From: Candidatus Tayloriibacteriota bacterium
GTDB taxonomy: Bacteria > Patescibacteriota > Minisyncoccia > Phycocordibacterales > CAIRYW01
Direction of reading: 5' to 3'
DNA: 52,264 nt
Assembly (NCBI GenBank): GCA_028286725.1
Contig: JAQBQZ010000003.1
Coordinates: 1-52,264, forward strand
The translations under genes were made by a program, and so were the position numbers. The notes under the pieces are model-generated. The model was not told the origin of the DNA. It made no database searches and worked only from the letters and a program-made list of their open reading frames with translations. Shown piece after piece: positions 6,212-49,442 of the stretch (position 1 is the first letter of the stretch; each line of letters opens with the position of its first letter).

Positions 6212-6623
6212 AGCGTTGGTAGATGTGCGTAAACTCGTATATAAAGAACTGCTCCGACCGGAAGCAAGTTATAGACAAACAAGTTCTTGCGGTTGAATTT
6301 AGAAATCAATTAAATCACATAAAATTGCTTCTGTAAATATGTAATGAAATCTATCGATAAAATAATAATTCTCTAATTTTTTTTCAATGCACCAACTTCA
6401 TCGTACAGAATGTTTGGGGCCATGAGTCTCGTGGGGTGAGCCGACTACAACATTGGCACATAAATATGCTCGCTAGTATTCCTGAAATAAGTTCGAACTT
6501 CATTTACGAGTTGGAGCACAAATACAAAAGGAGCAAGGAGTATTGATAAAATCTATTTAAACTAATTTATAAAAAAACCATCATCACGAATGAAGACGGA
6601 TCTTCCTCGTGATGATGGATAGG

Positions 6624-7253
6624 CTAACACAACATGATGACAACAGTTATGATCATAAAGAAAAGATTTTCGAATGTGTATGCTGACTCCTCGAGAATCT
6701 TCATTCTATGCTCTGGTTGTTTCCTGATCTTCATGACAAGTTTTTCAACTTTGATCAGGGTGATGGTTGCTGCCATAATCCACATATACCATCCGGCAAG
6801 CAGCCACCAGCTTGGTGGATCATGTGGCAGGAGGTACTGTTTGATCTGCGGATAGTAGGACATTACATCGGTAATAATCCCGCCAAGGAAAAGAATTCGG
6901 GGATTACCTTTCTTCTTGAGCGTGCTCCATATAACCCAGATCACGATTGTGGTGATGAGACCGTAGAGAACGATCTTTTCCGCATCTCCTAAATTGAAGG
7001 TGGTACCTCTGAGGCACAGCCCGAAGATCAGCATTGAGAAATTTCCAGTAAGGAAACCTGCCAAAAGCTTCCATCCGTCGTAACCTTGGGCTCGCGATGA
7101 GATCATGAGCATGGTCGCGAGTATGAGCCAAATGCTGTACGAGGCGAGGTTTATTTCTTCTGGATGTTGCCATCCGCCGATAGCAAGAGGAATATATGCT
7201 CCCGCGCTCAGAACTAATACGATATTATCCCAAGAGATTTTTGTTAAGGGCAC
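6624..7253 (-). CDS. Multi-TM membrane protein, PQ-loop-like, paralog of 35297-35878
   Basis: About 6-7 TM segments; DVMSYYPQIKQ motif; terminator CCATCATCACGA...TCGTGATGATGG downstream. Confidence 0.75.
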   Translation of the reverse strand: MPLTKISWDNIVLVLSAGAYIPLAIGGWQHPEEINLASYSIWLILATMLMISSRAQGYDGWKLLAGFLTGNFSMLIFGLCLRGTTFNLGDAEKIVLYGLITTIVIWVIWSTLKKKGNPRILFLGGIITDVMSYYPQIKQYLLPHDPPSWWLLAGWYMWIMAATITLIKVEKLVMKIRKQPEHRMKILEESAYTFENLFFMIITVVIMLC

Positions 7254-20675: not shown

Positions 20676-20763
20676 TTATAATAATTAAATGAACCACACT
20701 CTTTGGGTGCGGTTCATTTTTGTTTTTTAAATATAGGACCTCGAATCAAAATTCATAAAGTGT

Positions 20764-20833
20764 CCTATAGTCCAACTTCGACTCGGACGCTGTGTACGAG
20801 AGTACTCGTCCACGCGCTCCTCGCTTGTTGGAA
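20764..20833 (+). repeat. 70-bp palindromic dispersed element, copy 2
   Basis: CCTATAGTCCAAC...GTTGGAA; 65/70 identical to reverse complement of 597-666. Confidence 0.85.
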
Positions 20834-20850
20834 TAAAAAATCCGCTATGG

Positions 20851-21090
20851 TTAAGCGGAGAACTTCCTGTTTGATGGTTTCGAGCATTGTTTCCTCAACC
20901 ACCATTCAATGATGAAGTGTATTGGCGTCATTAAGACAAAGATGGTGAAGCAAATGAAGGATTGATACCATTTAAGTTTGTAAAAAGATTCTTCTTTGTG
21001 GCACCTCTTCCTGTTCTTGTTGGCGCAAATACAATAATAAAAGAGCCCTGAGGCGATCCACAAAAGGATCAGGTATAAGGTTATTTCCAT
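20851..21090 (-). CDS. Small two-TM membrane protein
   Basis: 79 aa, two hydrophobic helices, Cys-rich. Confidence 0.55.
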   Translation of the reverse strand: MEITLYLILLWIASGLFYYCICANKNRKRCHKEESFYKLKWYQSFICFTIFVLMTPIHFIIEWWLRKQCSKPSNRKFSA

Positions 21091-21232
21091 AATAGGTAGG
21101 GGGGGGGTGTTTTCTGATTTAACTTTACAACTTTTTCTTATTTTGTAAATAACTTTAGTGCTAGATAAAAAAAAGACCCCGCTCGTTATGTGCGACGGGA
21201 CCGATGCCTTGTTTGTATAAGATAGGGAACTT

Positions 21233-22853: not shown

Positions 22854-23921
22854 ATGGCATTCAAATTTCTACAAAAATTCTACGCAATGTTCTCAAATGA
22901 TATCGGGATCGACCTCGGTACTGCAAACACTCTTGTGTATGTGGAAGGTAAAGGTATTGTCGTGCGTGAGCCATCAGTTGTAGCGCTCAATCAAAAGACG
23001 GGGCAGGTAGTAGCGGTAGGAAGCCAAGCTAAAGACATGCTCGGCAAGACTCCTGGCCATATTATCGCTATTCGGCCAATTGTTGATGGTGTGATTTCGG
23101 ACTTTGAAGTAACTGAAGAAATGATGTCATATCTCATCAATCGAGCAGAAGGCGACAACAAAAAAATGCTCGGTCCTCGAGTGGTTGTAGGTGTGCCATC
23201 AGGCATTACAAACGTTGAGAGACGAGCCGTACGAGATGCAACAGTGAATGCTGGTGCGCGAGAAGTTCATATTGTTGAAGAGCCAATGGCTGCAGCAATC
23301 GGTATTGGAGTACCAATCAATGATCCGGTAGGAAATATGATTGTGGACATTGGCGGTGGCACAACGGATATTGCGATTATTTCTTTGGGTGGAATTGTTC
23401 ATTCTCGAAATATCAAGATCGCAGGAGATAAGCTCAATAATGACATTACACAGTTTCTAAAAAATGAGCTCAAGATTCTTATTGGAGAAAAAACTGCGGA
23501 AGATATCAAAATAAATATTGGAAGCGTACTTGATACAGATTCTGGTGGAGAGATGGCGGTTCGAGGACGAGATCTTATCACGGGACTTCCTCGAGAAGTG
23601 GTGATTACTGAATCAGATGTGCGAGATGCGATCGCAGGATCTATCAATACACTCATCGAATCGATCAAAGAAGTGATCGAGATTACTCCGCCTGAAGTTG
23701 TGTCTGATATTATGCATCGTGGACTTCACTTGGCAGGAGGCGGAGCGCTCATTCGAGGAATGAAAGAGCTTCTTGAAAGTGTGCTCAAGATCCCTGTTCA
23801 CGTTGCTGAAGATCCGCTCACAGCAGTTGTGCGAGGAACAGGAATAATCCTAAATGATATTGATGCGTATCAGGATGCGCTAATTAAAAACGAAGATGAG
23901 TTACCTTTTACACGCAACTAA
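22854..23921 (+). CDS. mreB: Rod shape-determining actin MreB (paralog 2, in mre operon)
   Basis: DIGIDLGTANT, VDIGGGTTD, AGGGALIRG. Confidence 0.96.
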   Translation: MAFKFLQKFYAMFSNDIGIDLGTANTLVYVEGKGIVVREPSVVALNQKTGQVVAVGSQAKDMLGKTPGHIIAIRPIVDGVISDFEVTEEMMSYLINRAEGDNKKMLGPRVVVGVPSGITNVERRAVRDATVNAGAREVHIVEEPMAAAIGIGVPINDPVGNMIVDIGGGTTDIAIISLGGIVHSRNIKIAGDKLNNDITQFLKNELKILIGEKTAEDIKINIGSVLDTDSGGEMAVRGRDLITGLPREVVITESDVRDAIAGSINTLIESIKEVIEITPPEVVSDIMHRGLHLAGGGALIRGMKELLESVLKIPVHVAEDPLTAVVRGTGIILNDIDAYQDALIKNEDELPFTRN

Positions 23922-45957: not shown

Positions 45958-46563
45958 ATGAATGACTCGTTTGAAAAACTAAAAGAAATATTCGGACATT
46001 TTCCAGGGATCGGACCTCGACAAGCGGAGAGGTTTGCATATTTTCTATTGGGACGAGACAACGGATATATTGAAGAGTTGAAAGCTCTTCTTTCGACTCT
46101 CAAAAAAGATGTCATTCAATGTAGCGAATGCATGCGATATTTTGCAAAGAAAAATAACATTGCTCTCTGCTCAATCTGTTCTGATCCAAATCGAAATACG
46201 GAAGTCTTGATGCTTGTTGCAAAAGATAATGATCTCATTACGGTAGAAAAAAGCGGGGCATTTTCTGGACGATATTTTGTCTTGGGTGGACTCATCCCAA
46301 TTCTTGAAAAAGTAGTAGAAAAAAGGATTAGACTCTTTCAACTCAAAAATCTCATCGAAAGAAATATTCAAATCAAAGAAGTGATACTTGCGCTTTCGGC
46401 GACGCACGAAGGAGAAAATACTGGAGATATAGTAGAGAAGGCAATCAAGGAAATAAATTCTACAATAAAGGTCTCTCGACTCGGGCGAGGACTCTCAACA
46501 GGACTTGAGATCGAATATTCTGATAGTGATACGATAAAGGAGGCGTTGAATAATAAGAAATAA
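45958..46563 (+). CDS. recR: Recombination mediator RecR
   Basis: FPGIGPRQAER, CxxC...CxxC, TOPRIM EVILA...EGE.T. Confidence 0.95.
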   Translation: MNDSFEKLKEIFGHFPGIGPRQAERFAYFLLGRDNGYIEELKALLSTLKKDVIQCSECMRYFAKKNNIALCSICSDPNRNTEVLMLVAKDNDLITVEKSGAFSGRYFVLGGLIPILEKVVEKRIRLFQLKNLIERNIQIKEVILALSATHEGENTGDIVEKAIKEINSTIKVSRLGRGLSTGLEIEYSDSDTIKEALNNKK

Positions 46564-46638
46564 ATATAAGTATTCAAGTTTAAAACAGAGACTTGTCAAC
46601 CTGGGAAAAAGGATGATTTTTGATATGATATACGAATT

Positions 46639-47337
46639 ATGAAAGCTGTTATATTAGCTGCTGGTAAAGGAACAAGAATGGGAGCTCTTTCTGAAGAGAC
46701 TCCTAAGCCTATGCAAAAAGTGCTTGAGAAGCCAATTCTCATGCGTATTCTTGACGCTCTTCCAGATGAGATCAATGAAGCTGTGATCACGGTTAACTAT
46801 CTTAAAGAACAGATTATTGATGCATTTGGACCAAAGTATAAACATATAAAGATTACATATATCGAGCAGAAAGAGCTTTTAGGTACCGCGCATGCATTAT
46901 GGGCATGTAAAGAGCATCTCATAAATGAGGATAAGTTTTTGGTTATGATGGGGGACAATATTTATACTAAAGAAGATCTTGAGGATTGTCTTCAAAATCC
47001 ATGGGCTCTCCTTGTGGAAAAGAGAAGTTCAATCAAGGGTGTTGCTAAAGTTGTTGTTGATGATGCCATGAATGTTCAAGATATTATTGAACGATATCCA
47101 AATGAAGAAGAAGGATTCACATCTCCGGGAGTCTATGCACTCACACCTGATATTTTTAATTATGAAATGGTGCAATGGGGTCATGGGGAATATGGATTAC
47201 CACAGACTATTGTTCTCGCAAAAAACGATCGCCCAATTAAGGCTGTAGTATTAAGATTTATGTTAATTATTACAACACCAGAAAATCTTAAAGAGGCTGA
47301 AGATCATTTTCTTTCTCTAGAAGTTGAGACTAAATAA
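46639..47337 (+). CDS. Sugar-phosphate nucleotidyltransferase (NTP_transferase family)
   Basis: AVILAAGKGTRM, TPKPM, LGTAHAL, MMGDN. Confidence 0.88.
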   Translation: MKAVILAAGKGTRMGALSEETPKPMQKVLEKPILMRILDALPDEINEAVITVNYLKEQIIDAFGPKYKHIKITYIEQKELLGTAHALWACKEHLINEDKFLVMMGDNIYTKEDLEDCLQNPWALLVEKRSSIKGVAKVVVDDAMNVQDIIERYPNEEEGFTSPGVYALTPDIFNYEMVQWGHGEYGLPQTIVLAKNDRPIKAVVLRFMLIITTPENLKEAEDHFLSLEVETK

Positions 47338-47359
47338 ATATTTAAATAGAATTTTTAAA

Positions 47360-47655
47360 ATCGAAAACCGGACTTGCGTGCGCAAATCCGGTCTTTAAAT
47401 TTGGTCCCACACCAGTCATTTTGGTTGATCCGGCAGGGATCGATTTCTGCATAGAATGCAGTGGAGTTTACCACCAACAACGAAGGGCTCCGTTTACCAA
47501 TATATGACTAGTGTGAGAATTCCAACAACGCTCGGTGAGGTACCAGCGCTAAAATGAACAAAAATGAGCGCTTCTCGTCGTGCCCTACGACATCGACAGG
47601 AAGCCTTCCCGGTCACCAGATCTCCCACTGACTCTGGTCGGAAATTCTTATATTA
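47360..47655 (-). ncRNA. Candidate structured ncRNA, unit B
   Basis: TTGACA-N17-TATATT (47689-47661), about 290 nt with no ORF of 60 aa or more, two multi-hairpin domains, terminator ACCGGATTTGC-GCAC-GCAAGTCCGGT-TTTC. Confidence 0.6.
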
Positions 47656-47719
47656 AATTCAATATAAATCTAAATATTAAAAATGTCAATAGTAGCGAAT
47701 TAGATCTTTGGGAAATTAT

Positions 47720-48052
47720 TTAAAATGAGAAGTGACCGTCAGCACGAAGCGGACGGTCACTCTTTTCTCAACTTATAGAAGGGCCCTGGCGCCAACGGCC
47801 GTTGCATAAAATGCAACCGGAGAACTGCGGAAAAACTGAACGCAGAACACACCTCCGAGCTGTCACCTCGCCCTTTACTTTTCTGTTGAAGAAACTTTAA
47901 AAAACAAATACCCTGTGTTGAGGGTGCCACTGTAAAAAACTACAGGTGTAACCTTGTGGTGTAGCGTTCTCGGAGTTAAAGGTCACCCATAATTAGCTGC
48001 ACTCACCCCAACACAGAGCCTCCATGATCCTCCCAAGGCATCATGAAGCTAG
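47720..48052 (-). ncRNA. Candidate structured ncRNA, unit A
   Basis: TTGACT-N16-TATAGT (48085-48058), about 330 nt with no ORF of 60 aa or more, long stems, terminal hairpin AGTGACCGTC/GACGGTCACT. Confidence 0.55.
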
Positions 48053-48086
48053 TTGTTACTATACTTACAAAATAGGGTTAGTCAAA

Positions 48087-49442
48087 TTAGTCCTTTATTT
48101 CAAAACCTTTTGATTGGATCTGGTTTCGGAGTTCATCTGCTTTTGTCCAATCTTTATTTTCTCGAGCAATTTTTCTTTCCTCAATTAGTTTCTGGACATC
48201 TTCTGGAATTTCTATATTTTCTTTTATGACAGAGCCGAGCATGAGACCAAGCACTTTGTCGAAATCAGTAAGTGTAGCTTTTCTGTCTGCCTGATTTAAT
48301 TCTCCATCTTTGACGAGTTCCCAAACTATTGCGAGTGCTTTTGGTGTGTCGAGGTCATTGTTCACAGCCTCGATAAATCTTTCTTTGTATTCAGTATTTA
48401 CTACACCGTTTCCATTACTTAGAGAATTAAAATGAGCGTGAAGTTTTTCGTAGGCTACTTGTGCAGATTTGATCGCATCGAGCGAATAATCCACCCGAGT
48501 TGAATATCGTGCAGTTAAAAGCCAGTATCGGTAGGCGAGAGTGTGTACTCCGTTTTTACTTAGTGTTTCTAGTGTGAGGAAGTTGTCTCCTGATTTTGCC
48601 ATCTTATCCTCTCCGATTGTAATGTGTGCATTATGCATCCAAAAGTTTGCGAGATTGTGTCCTGTTGCACATTCAGTTTGAGCGATTTCGTTGTTGTGGT
48701 GCACCGGAATATGATCAATTCCTCCTGTGTGAATGTCGATCGGAGTGCCGAGATACTTTTCTATCATCGCAGAACATTCGATGTGCCAGCCAGGGAATCC
48801 GTTTCCAAATGGAGCAACAAAACCAAGTCCTGTTCCATCGGCAAATTTCCATAATGCAAAATCCCGATAGTTTTTCTTTTCAGTATTTGATTCGATACGC
48901 CCATGGTCATTGTCCTCTGCGATACCTCCGAGTCTTCCGTAATGAGTATCTTTTGTAGTATCAAAATAAATTCCATCTGTTGTTTTGTATGCAAAATCTT
49001 TTTGAAGGAGGGTTTGAATCATCTCGATATCTTCTTTGATGTGATCACTTGCAAAAGGAAATGCAGACGGGAGTTCGATATTCAGTTTCTCTAGATCTGT
49101 TTTGAATGCTTCAAAATAAAAATTGGCAATAGAGCGCATGTTTTCGAGGTTCATTTCTTTACCTTCTCGTTTGAGTGCTTTGACCATTTTGTCGTCACCT
49201 TGGTCAGCATCGCTTGTTAGATGTCCAACATCTGTTACGTTCATTATGTGCTTTACATTAAATCCATTGTATTTGAGAGTTCGTTTGAGTGTATCAGCAA
49301 ATACGTAAGCACGGAGATTGCCAATGTGTGCATAGTTGTAGACGGTCGGTCCACAAGAGTAAAGTTTAACTTCTTTTGGGTTTATTGGTGTAAATTTTTG
49401 TTTCTCCTTGCCGAGAGTGTTGGATAGCCAGATTTCATTCAT
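48087..49442 (-). CDS. cysS: Cysteinyl-tRNA synthetase
   Basis: CGPTVYNYAHIGN, PGWHIECSAM, HNNEIAQ, KMAKS. Confidence 0.97.
   Translation of the reverse strand: MNEIWLSNTLGKEKQKFTPINPKEVKLYSCGPTVYNYAHIGNLRAYVFADTLKRTLKYNGFNVKHIMNVTDVGHLTSDADQGDDKMVKALKREGKEMNLENMRSIANFYFEAFKTDLEKLNIELPSAFPFASDHIKEDIEMIQTLLQKDFAYKTTDGIYFDTTKDTHYGRLGGIAEDNDHGRIESNTEKKNYRDFALWKFADGTGLGFVAPFGNGFPGWHIECSAMIEKYLGTPIDIHTGGIDHIPVHHNNEIAQTECATGHNLANFWMHNAHITIGEDKMAKSGDNFLTLETLSKNGVHTLAYRYWLLTARYSTRVDYSLDAIKSAQVAYEKLHAHFNSLSNGNGVVNTEYKERFIEAVNNDLDTPKALAIVWELVKDGELNQADRKATLTDFDKVLGLMLGSVIKENIEIPEDVQKLIEERKIARENKDWTKADELRNQIQSKGFEIKD

Follow-up and report, generated by a model that had tools for sequence, protein, structure and literature searches.

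Results

Gene context and boundaries of Unit B

The DNA analyzed here, a 52-kb chromosome segment of 52,264 nucleotides (nt) from an uncultured bacterium of the Patescibacteria (candidate phyla radiation, CPR), referred to below as the window, carries in one of its intergenic spacers a feature, named Unit B, that is very probably a real structured RNA gene, independently transcribed, non-coding, and about 290 nt long. The genes near Unit B are dnaB, recR, a sugar nucleotidyltransferase gene, cysS, corA, and a Ctp-type protease gene, in an order that is the same in relatives, and Unit B itself lies within a 750-nt spacer flanked by the convergent cysS (49442-48087, minus strand) and sugar nucleotidyltransferase gene (46639-47337, plus strand). 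It is situated 3′ of cysS, faces the next gene convergently, and has no further gene beyond it on its own strand; it is one of three structured units (Unit A, a middle unit, and Unit B) that follow one another on the minus strand of the spacer. Among the neighbour genes there is none for a reverse transcriptase, transposase, integrase, recombinase, or nuclease.

From the positions of its promoter and terminator, the transcript of Unit B is predicted to run on the minus strand from ~47654 to ~47358, that is, over roughly 290-297 nt. The promoter (47661-47689, minus strand), identified by its match to the consensus, comprises a -35 box TTGACA (47689-47684) and a -10 box TATATT (47666-47661) separated by a 17-nt spacer; it matches the consensus at 11 of 12 positions and is the best in its region, its score being equaled by one other site in the parts scanned (1-40000 and 46500-48500), and we infer that transcription would start near 47654. 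A TTGACA -35 box also stands upstream of the Unit B orthologues in the relatives' loci L002, L100, and L103 described below, and the promoter scan disclosed no credible antisense promoter at Unit B. At the 3′ end lies an intrinsic terminator (47358-47395, minus strand), recognized by folding and by pairing in four lineages, with a GC-rich stem of 14 base pairs (bp), AGACCGGAUUUGCG / CGCAAGUCCGGUUU, at 47395-47364, then UUUUCGAUUUU, its tail being given as UUUUCGAUUU. The stem sequence is different in each of the four lineages, yet fully paired in all of them. About 22 nt separate the terminator from the stop codon of the nucleotidyltransferase gene, and because a T-rich run follows the hairpin on the plus strand too, where a sub-threshold Rfam match aligns as a terminator, it probably serves both transcripts. 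These features agree with a first-pass annotation made from the sequence, in which a unit extending from a consensus promoter to an intrinsic terminator, giving a ~290-nt transcript and convergent with the nucleotidyltransferase gene, had been proposed.

Predicted secondary structure

The minus strand of 47360-47660 folds with a minimum free energy (MFE) of -114.1 kcal/mol, as compared with -84.6 +/- 5.4 kcal/mol for dinucleotide shuffles (z -5.48). The core of Unit B without the terminator still gives z -4.04, with none of 200 shuffles as stable, and the opposite strand of the same bases gives z -2.58. The orthologues in L002, L100, and L103 fold with z values of -7.16, -7.39, and -6.16, respectively. 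In P3a, P3b, P4 (defined below), and the terminator of the four lineages, 23 G-U pairs occur, each of which would be an A-C mismatch on the other strand; the minus strand is the functional strand of Unit B.

The elements of the fold, all on the minus strand, are arranged as follows. A 5′ leader, UAAUAUAAGAAU (47644-47655), delimited from the alignments, precedes hairpin P1 (47607-47643; UUCCG-ACCAGA, loop GUCAGUGGGAGA, UCUGGU-GAC-CGGGA), the loop of which is purine-rich (GUCAGUGGGAGA in the window, GUCAGGGAGG in L100). A (U)AAGA(A)UUU block across the leader/P1 boundary recurs in L002 and L103, L100 having UAAUAAAUUU instead. P2 is a long hairpin (47570-47604; GCUUC.UGUCG.UGUC-GUAG-GGCA CGACG.GAAGC) that, like P1, is supported by the folds and by paired changes. 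It is followed by a conserved and mostly single-stranded U-rich block, GCU-CAUUUUUGUUCAUUUU (47551-47569), which makes up J2/3 and the 5′ strand of P3a; its portion CAUUUUUGnUCAUUU is identical in the window and L002, with CAUUGUUCUUUACCAUUU in L100 and CAUUUU in L103. The leader can pair with the J2/3 block in the MFE fold of the window, a pairing without covariation support. Hairpin P3 (47521-47558), paired in four lineages, consists of P3a (UUCA/UGGA) and P3b (UAGCGCUGGU / ACC-G-AGCGUUG), and across the orthologues it has a P3a base of 4-6 bp, a small internal loop, and P3b with an apical loop of 5-6 nt. In the window this loop is ACCUC (47541-47537), which is anti-Shine-Dalgarno-like, and CCUC stands at the P3b tip in all four lineages while the stem sequence varies.

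The largest domain, P4 (47405-47518; fold and covariation), is closed by a 15-bp stem (47518-47504 with 47419-47405) that contains two G-U pairs in the window; inside this stem lie an inner helix, UUGGU/ACCAA, and four small hairpins (47500-47421). The closing stem measures 15 bp in the window and L103, 17 in L002, and 16 in L100, always canonical and with differing sequences, whereas the hairpins inside it number four in the window, three in L002, two in L100, and two main ones in L103. Between P4 and the terminator, the four-lineage comparison reveals an A/U-rich linker, CCAAAUUUA(AAG) (47396-47404), which in every lineage includes AUUU (CCAAAUUU in the window and L103, AAAAUAUUU in L002, and CCAGAUUU in L100); the pattern CCAAAUUUnAA is common to the window and L103. 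Three short elements alone keep their sequence while the parts around them change: the CCU(C) tip of P3b, the U-rich block that precedes P3b, and this linker. The invariant core of Unit B comprises the U-rich block, P3 tipped by CCU(C), the long stem of P4, and, ahead of the terminator, the A/U-rich linker; P1, P2, and the small hairpins enclosed by P4 come and go between lineages.

Orthologues and covariation

The cysS neighbourhoods of relatives were taken from species-representative genomes, from CysS homologues, and from members of their 90% clusters; the closest CysS relatives all belong to Patescibacteria genomes assembled from metagenomes. Unit B orthologues were found at 2598-2915 of L002 (CysS 80% identical), ~4690-4985 of L100 (CysS 75%, with near-identical copies in L106 and L107), and ~4755-4985 of L103 (CysS at least 90%), each, like Unit B in the window, being the final unit ahead of the convergent nucleotidyltransferase gene. 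Unit B matches L002 in an nhmmer search with E 7.6e-8. A covariance model derived solely from the window sequence and the curated structure matches L103 (3e-12), L002 (1.6e-11), and L100 (8e-6), in addition to L107 and L106; neither the rest of the window nor the other 24 Patescibacteria loci searched gave a further match, and a sequence profile over the 103 collected sequences added none. The model did not detect Unit B in L001, L003, L101, L102, or L104, and with filters off on L001, L003, L099, L101, L102, L104, and L026 it returned generic long hairpins only. An exact-pattern scan of Joint Genome Institute (JGI) metagenomes with GAAGNNNNCATTTTTGNTCATTT returned 70 loci, all chance matches with no similarity beyond the pattern, and BLAST comparisons of the spacer with phage records and of Unit B with plasmid records gave no match. 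Unit B is distributed only among relatives with CysS at least about 75% identical.

Each orthologue folded alone gives the layout of Unit B. Pairs were counted in a model-guided alignment of the three most divergent lineages (80 pairs), in which standard pairs fill 95.8% of cells, a share that falls to 38-46% once the 3′ partners are shifted by 1-3 columns, and both sides have changed in 31 of the 80 pairs, as against 1-4 in these shifted controls; none of 500 shuffles attains the observed values for pairing and both-side changes. The changes are spread over the helices. Both sides have changed in 6 of 11 pairs of P1 (helices 1-2; 5 of 6 in upper P1), 8 of 14 pairs of P2 (helix 3; 97.5% of cells paired), 6 of 14 pairs of P3 (helices 4-5; 2 of 4 in P3a and 4 of 10 in P3b), and 9 of 15 pairs of P4 (helix 6; 100% of cells paired). 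When checked by hand, P3a, P3b, P4, and the terminator are 100% canonical in the four lineages with strand sequences differing. These compensatory changes show that the predicted secondary structure of Unit B is under selection. Taken together with the strand-specific z, the promoter in four lineages, the same layout in independent folds, and the lack of a conserved open reading frame (ORF), they support a discrete RNA unit, structured beyond what a terminator or untranslated region would require and running from its own promoter to its own terminator.

In these respects the first-pass annotation, which had called for a z-score against shuffles and for homologues, is upheld, the z value lying far from 0 and the orthologues retaining the architecture through compensatory changes instead of losing the stems. 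Its account of the second domain also holds in outline: the long closing stem, described as 12 bp with one G-U pair, is real and covarying, although it extends over 15 bp with two G-U pairs, and the TTGG/CCAA inner helix (as UUGG(U)/(A)CCAA) and the four small hairpins are all present in the MFE fold. The first domain requires revision. Hairpins do exist there, but they are not closed by a GGTGA/TCACC helix, which has no counterpart in L002 and L100 and would clash with the 3′ strand of P1 and with the loop and 3′ strand of P3b, both supported by compensatory changes; instead, the dispensable P1 and P2 are followed by the conserved P3. Of the three hairpins drawn inside that helix, AGCGCT...AGCGCT would enclose the conserved single-stranded block and its palindrome is absent from L002 and L100, GGAA-GGC-TTCC is absent from the orthologues and gives way to the longer P2 (GCUUC...GAAGC) as the conserved version, and GTCGT/ACGAC is an alternative register of the P2 tip.

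The departures from this architecture among close relatives are of several kinds. L103 is the closest relative whose spacer is complete; its leader runs straight into CAUUUU-P3-P4, with neither P1 nor P2 in between, so these two hairpins are dispensable. In L001 (CysS 89%), the Unit B position holds a single 5′ hairpin followed by a long-stem domain, only the 3′ end being shared. L003 has a reduced unit sharing the AAAUUUAAA-terminator-UUUUCG end, and L104 and L105 each have one composite RNA with a Unit-B-type terminator. The covariance model recognizes none of these variant units.

At 5985-6003 of L001, a G run is followed by an assembly gap (N) inside the unit at the Unit B position, and a run of nine G resembling it occurs in the window at ~21095-21105, within the 20.7-21.2 kb spacer; homopolymers of this kind may be points at which assemblies of the islands break.

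The variable island between cysS and the nucleotidyltransferase gene

The spacer that harbors Unit B is itself a variable island. In the window, L001, L002, L003, L026, and L100-L103, the cysS-nucleotidyltransferase spacer contains one to five terminator-bearing units, most with their own promoter, and the island is absent where the two genes overlap (L027); in L098 a different gene, encoding a hydrolase, directly follows cysS, and the locus is uninformative as to the island. In the window, Unit A (~48057-47905, minus strand) has a promoter-like TTGACT-16-TATAGT at 48085-48058 and a terminator at 47925-47910, and the middle unit (~47870-47710, minus strand) has a 13-bp terminator at 47761-47731 and no evident promoter. 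The two together (47700-48062, minus strand) fold with z -4.06 and have no Rfam match; both have orthologues in L103 with compensatory changes in the long stems, e.g., CUCUGUGUUGGGG/CCCUCAACACAGGG versus CUCUGCGCCAAGG/CCACUCGGCGCAGAG.

How far such islands can diverge is seen in L099 (4354-4708) and L104 (4354-4674), where cysS is 97% identical at the DNA level and the islands cannot be aligned beyond the first promoter, which they share (65% identity and 142 gap columns, an alignment no better than those of other unalignable island pairs). The two loci come from runs with the neighbouring accessions SRR14234120 and SRR14234115. The contrast suggests that islands are replaced in the manner of cassettes, although the short L099 contig may contain an assembly artefact. 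L100 and L106, for their part, are 98% identical in cysS and in the island alike.

Hexamers were counted on the sense strand of 11 islands (6.2 kb), some of them related and the counts therefore partly interdependent; TTGACA (10 versus 1.5 expected, and 0 antisense) and TGTTGG (12 versus 2.3 expected, in 9 of the 11 islands) are the two most enriched. The longer GTTGTTGG was found 8 times on the sense strand, where 0.37 is expected, and not at all on the antisense strand. The motif GUUGUUGG recurs in otherwise unalignable units; its copies in the window are at 47528 and 47480, with TGTTGG at 48013, and the first copy in Unit B constitutes the 3′ strands of P3b and P3a.

Another type of RNA, 'Unit X', also recurs. 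Its long stem closes around a conserved GUUGUUGGUUGC, and it was found at 5470-5630 of L003, 4520-4690 of L101, 4395-4490 of L099, 2065-2180 of L102, and 4425-4505 of L104. It is the first unit after cysS in L003, L099, L101, and L104 and lies further downstream in L102, and it is clearly homologous between L003 and L101 (GGUUCACACACG... / ...CGUGUGUGGACCACCAUACGAUCUUU).

Discussion

Unit B as a new RNA family

The results described above point to Unit B as a new family of a known kind of RNA, namely, a bacterial small non-coding RNA gene, restricted to one clade. Nothing in Rfam 15 matches it: at the gathering threshold the window contains two transfer RNAs only, and in a 1-kb search at E up to 10 all matches fall far below threshold, on terminator hairpins or AT-rich runs. 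Several individual families were considered and rejected. 6S RNA forms one extended hairpin of ~180-200 nt, opened by a large central bubble that mimics an open promoter, whereas Unit B folds into separate P1, P2, and P3 hairpins and a multi-branched P4, and no Rfam 6S match was obtained. A T-box leader, considered in view of the neighbouring aminoacyl-tRNA synthetase gene, would be alike in being a structured RNA of 200-300 nt that ends in a terminator beside cysS and has a GGUGGUA string; however, Unit B is downstream (3′) of cysS, its GGUGGUA is not conserved in L103, L002, or L100, and RF00230 gave no match at E up to 10. Retron msr-msd RNAs and other enzyme-partnered RNAs (TnpB/IscB, IS110 recombinase, Tas) were set aside for want of an adjacent partner gene and of tandem repeats, and the integron attC, TIGR array, and retron readings were dropped in view of the lack of repeats, consensus sites, and partner genes.

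The features of Unit B are worth comparing with those of better-known systems. Unit B resembles a base-pairing small RNA (sRNA) in having, as predicted, its own promoter, an intrinsic terminator, and no coding function, and as a candidate seed it has the conserved CCU(C) tip and U-rich block, the last C being possibly paired in two lineages. Staphylococcus aureus RNAIII and RsaE/RoxS, as generally described, likewise have their own promoter and terminator, several hairpins, long-range helices closing domains, and a pyrimidine-rich apical loop, CCUC being complementary to the Shine-Dalgarno core GAGG. Unit B differs from them in belonging to another phylum, in showing no similarity by sequence or covariance model, in having one conserved C-containing loop instead of several UCCC loops, and in the absence of an embedded peptide gene such as hld. 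With the raiA motif, OLE, ROOL, and GOLLD it shares an intergenic position, covariation support, multi-stem junctions, and an origin in metagenome-derived genomes; it has no match to any of them, is smaller than OLE, ROOL, and GOLLD, and, unlike these RNAs, is clade-narrow and modular, whole hairpins being lost or gained between close relatives. The arrangement of short head-to-tail units on the same strand of one spacer, sharing GUUGUUGG, recalls Listeria LhrC1-4 and Vibrio Qrr. Sibling small RNAs, however, share most of their sequence, whereas the spacer units are not recognizable paralogues and the shared motif is partly structural in Unit B.

Proposed function

We tentatively propose that Unit B may be a trans-acting regulatory sRNA, controlling translation through its anti-Shine-Dalgarno-like loop, a reading that on the sequence and by analogy is possible rather than probable. 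CCUC is the core of the anti-Shine-Dalgarno sequence, and regulatory RNAs of Gram-positive bacteria with C-rich loops block the initiation of translation. In Unit B, the exposed CCUC loop would pair with GAGG in the ribosome-binding region of one or more messenger RNAs (mRNAs) and thereby block their translation. The U-rich block may extend the duplex; as its complement, AAAAUGAACAAAAAUG, reads like a start region, an extended duplex covering both the Shine-Dalgarno sequence and the start codon is conceivable. The long stems would confer stability or serve as processing sites. Two further contacts within the RNA were considered and discarded: a tertiary pairing between J2/3 and the 3′ portion of domain 2 (inverted repeat I2) is, as judged by eye, not kept by the orthologues, and kissing of the P1 loop (GGGAG) with the P3b loop (CCUC) would involve 3-4 bp only, is inconsistent between lineages, and would depend on the dispensable P1.

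Several points weigh against the interpretation of Unit B as a structured regulatory RNA. The covariation comes from four independent lineages, and an alignment fitted with the model leans the counts towards the structure, a bias for which the independent single-sequence folds serve as the control. Unit B is remodelled in L001 and was not detected in several close relatives, and hence it is not essential. In the folds of L002 and L103 the last C of CCUC is paired as the closure of the stem, leaving only CCU exposed. As to targets, no convincing one was found in the 52-kb window, where the complement of the U-rich block has 4 near or exact matches, 3.6 being expected. The best duplex, with the gene start at 23896 (-30.7 kcal/mol), lies ~3.5 standard deviations from the mean of 401 start regions, which is about what the best of 401 would reach by chance, and it rests on bases specific to the window.

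The main rival to the base-pairing regulator is a protein-binding or RNase-processed RNA, the long stems and GUUGUUGG of which would be recognized by RNase III or another RNA-binding protein, so that Unit B would act as a sponge or scaffold or would be cleaved to release an inner fragment. We consider this unlikely, though by no means negligible. Every island unit is built on a long perfect stem closing a multi-hairpin loop, GTTGTTGG is enriched in the islands in a strand-specific manner, and the interior of P4 varies freely while its stem is kept, all of which would suit such a role. On the other hand, no candidate protein partner is encoded beside the locus, and the first GUUGUUGG copy forms part of the P3b/P3a helices; since L103 has CUGUUGAG there with the pairing kept, the role of the motif appears to be structural rather than sequence-specific. 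A broader view, which we regard as rather improbable as it stands, takes the whole spacer as a strain-variable RNA cassette island, in which modular long-stem RNAs with their own promoters and terminators, many bearing GUUGUUGG, are swapped or remodelled, even where the flanking genes of two strains are 97% identical. If that were true, the island would imply diversifying selection, e.g., through a role of the RNAs in phage conflict or in the interaction of an episymbiont with its host, and Unit B would be the most conserved member of the system. The same variability could be read purely at the DNA level, the long inverted repeats being the termini of a miniature mobile element or a hot spot of recombination, and the island a site of cassette exchange with a functionless RNA. 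The wholly different island content of L099 and L104 beside cysS genes 97% identical in DNA, together with modules that come and go (P1 and P2 lost in L103, the composite unit in L104), fits this account, which is nevertheless quite improbable: the stems covary and contain many G-U pairs valid only in the RNA of one strand, z is strand-asymmetric, each unit has a promoter and terminator on the sense strand, a search of the window and of more than 100 collected loci found no second copy, and there are no direct repeats, target-site duplications, or transposase or integrase genes nearby.

Still less credit is due to mere insulation of transcription, in which stacked terminators would separate the convergent genes and the promoters would be chance matches in AT-rich DNA. 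It is true that the terminal hairpin probably terminates both strands and that promoter-like matches are generally no commoner than in shuffles; yet terminators leave ~230 nt of covarying upstream helices unexplained, the TTGACA -35 box is kept in all lineages, and relatives with overlapping or abutting convergent genes manage without a spacer. That Unit B is a structured mRNA for a small protein, e.g., a type I toxin, is hardly credible. Type I toxin mRNAs are 200-400 nt long, highly folded, equipped with their own promoter and terminator, and located in variable intergenic islands, and Unit B does contain a 44-codon GTG ORF (47628-47494, minus strand) and, on the opposite strand, a 25-codon ATG ORF from 47554. 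Neither ORF is conserved among the four lineages, however: indels put L002 out of frame with the window, the peptides have nothing in common beyond the residues imposed by shared nucleotides, with a best local BLOSUM62 score of 39, and no hydrophobic helix recurs. We therefore rejected the type I toxin mRNA. Equally far-fetched is a very divergent housekeeping RNA (RNase P RNA, 6S RNA, transfer-messenger RNA (tmRNA), or signal recognition particle (SRP) RNA) missed by Rfam in the CPR. The size and stability of Unit B are in range and none of these RNAs was matched in the window, but neither Rfam at E up to 10 nor ARAGORN, which found no tmRNA, gave any hit, the fold is unlike the bubble-containing hairpin of 6S RNA, and on reading the Unit B sequence none of the universally conserved blocks of RNase P and SRP RNAs was seen. 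Moreover, two hairpins are lost in the nearest relative and the unit is undetected in several others, which is not how an essential RNA behaves, and the RNase P, tmRNA, and SRP assignments were rejected.

On the plus strand, the complement of the U-rich block (window 47551-47566) reads AAAATGAACAAAAATG and opens the 25-codon ORF, MNKNERF.... At the same place L002 has MIKN... and L100 has MVKNN..., the remainder of the peptides being unrelated; the shared first codons of this antisense frame are taken as a by-product of the conservation of the U-rich block in the RNA.

Significance

Patescibacteria/CPR genomes are ~1 Mb in size and have few known regulators. Our literature searches found no paper describing small RNAs of Patescibacteria, and a 2022 transcriptome paper on the cultured Saccharibacteria strain TM7x states outright that none has been validated in the group (10.1101/2022.03.25.485537). 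Given this lack of a validated sRNA in the group, together with the strong promoter, the predicted length of ~290 nt, and the covariation support, Unit B is a concrete candidate for post-transcriptional control in Patescibacteria. It also illustrates the evolution of an RNA by gain and loss of whole hairpins. The value of the finding lies in a well-supported new RNA family of narrow distribution rather than in a new principle.

Other observations in the window and its relatives

In L103, a 119-codon gene (6473-6832) encoding a 23S ribosomal RNA intervening-sequence protein domain (PF05635) lies between recR and dnaB, whereas in the window recR directly follows dnaB without such a gene. Another long spacer of the window, 20720-21225, shows a terminator-like hairpin on the minus strand (20859-20841) ~290 nt from a promoter-like site (21149-21122); with z -1.96 it folds weakly better than shuffles, it has no Rfam match, and it could be a small gene or another small RNA.

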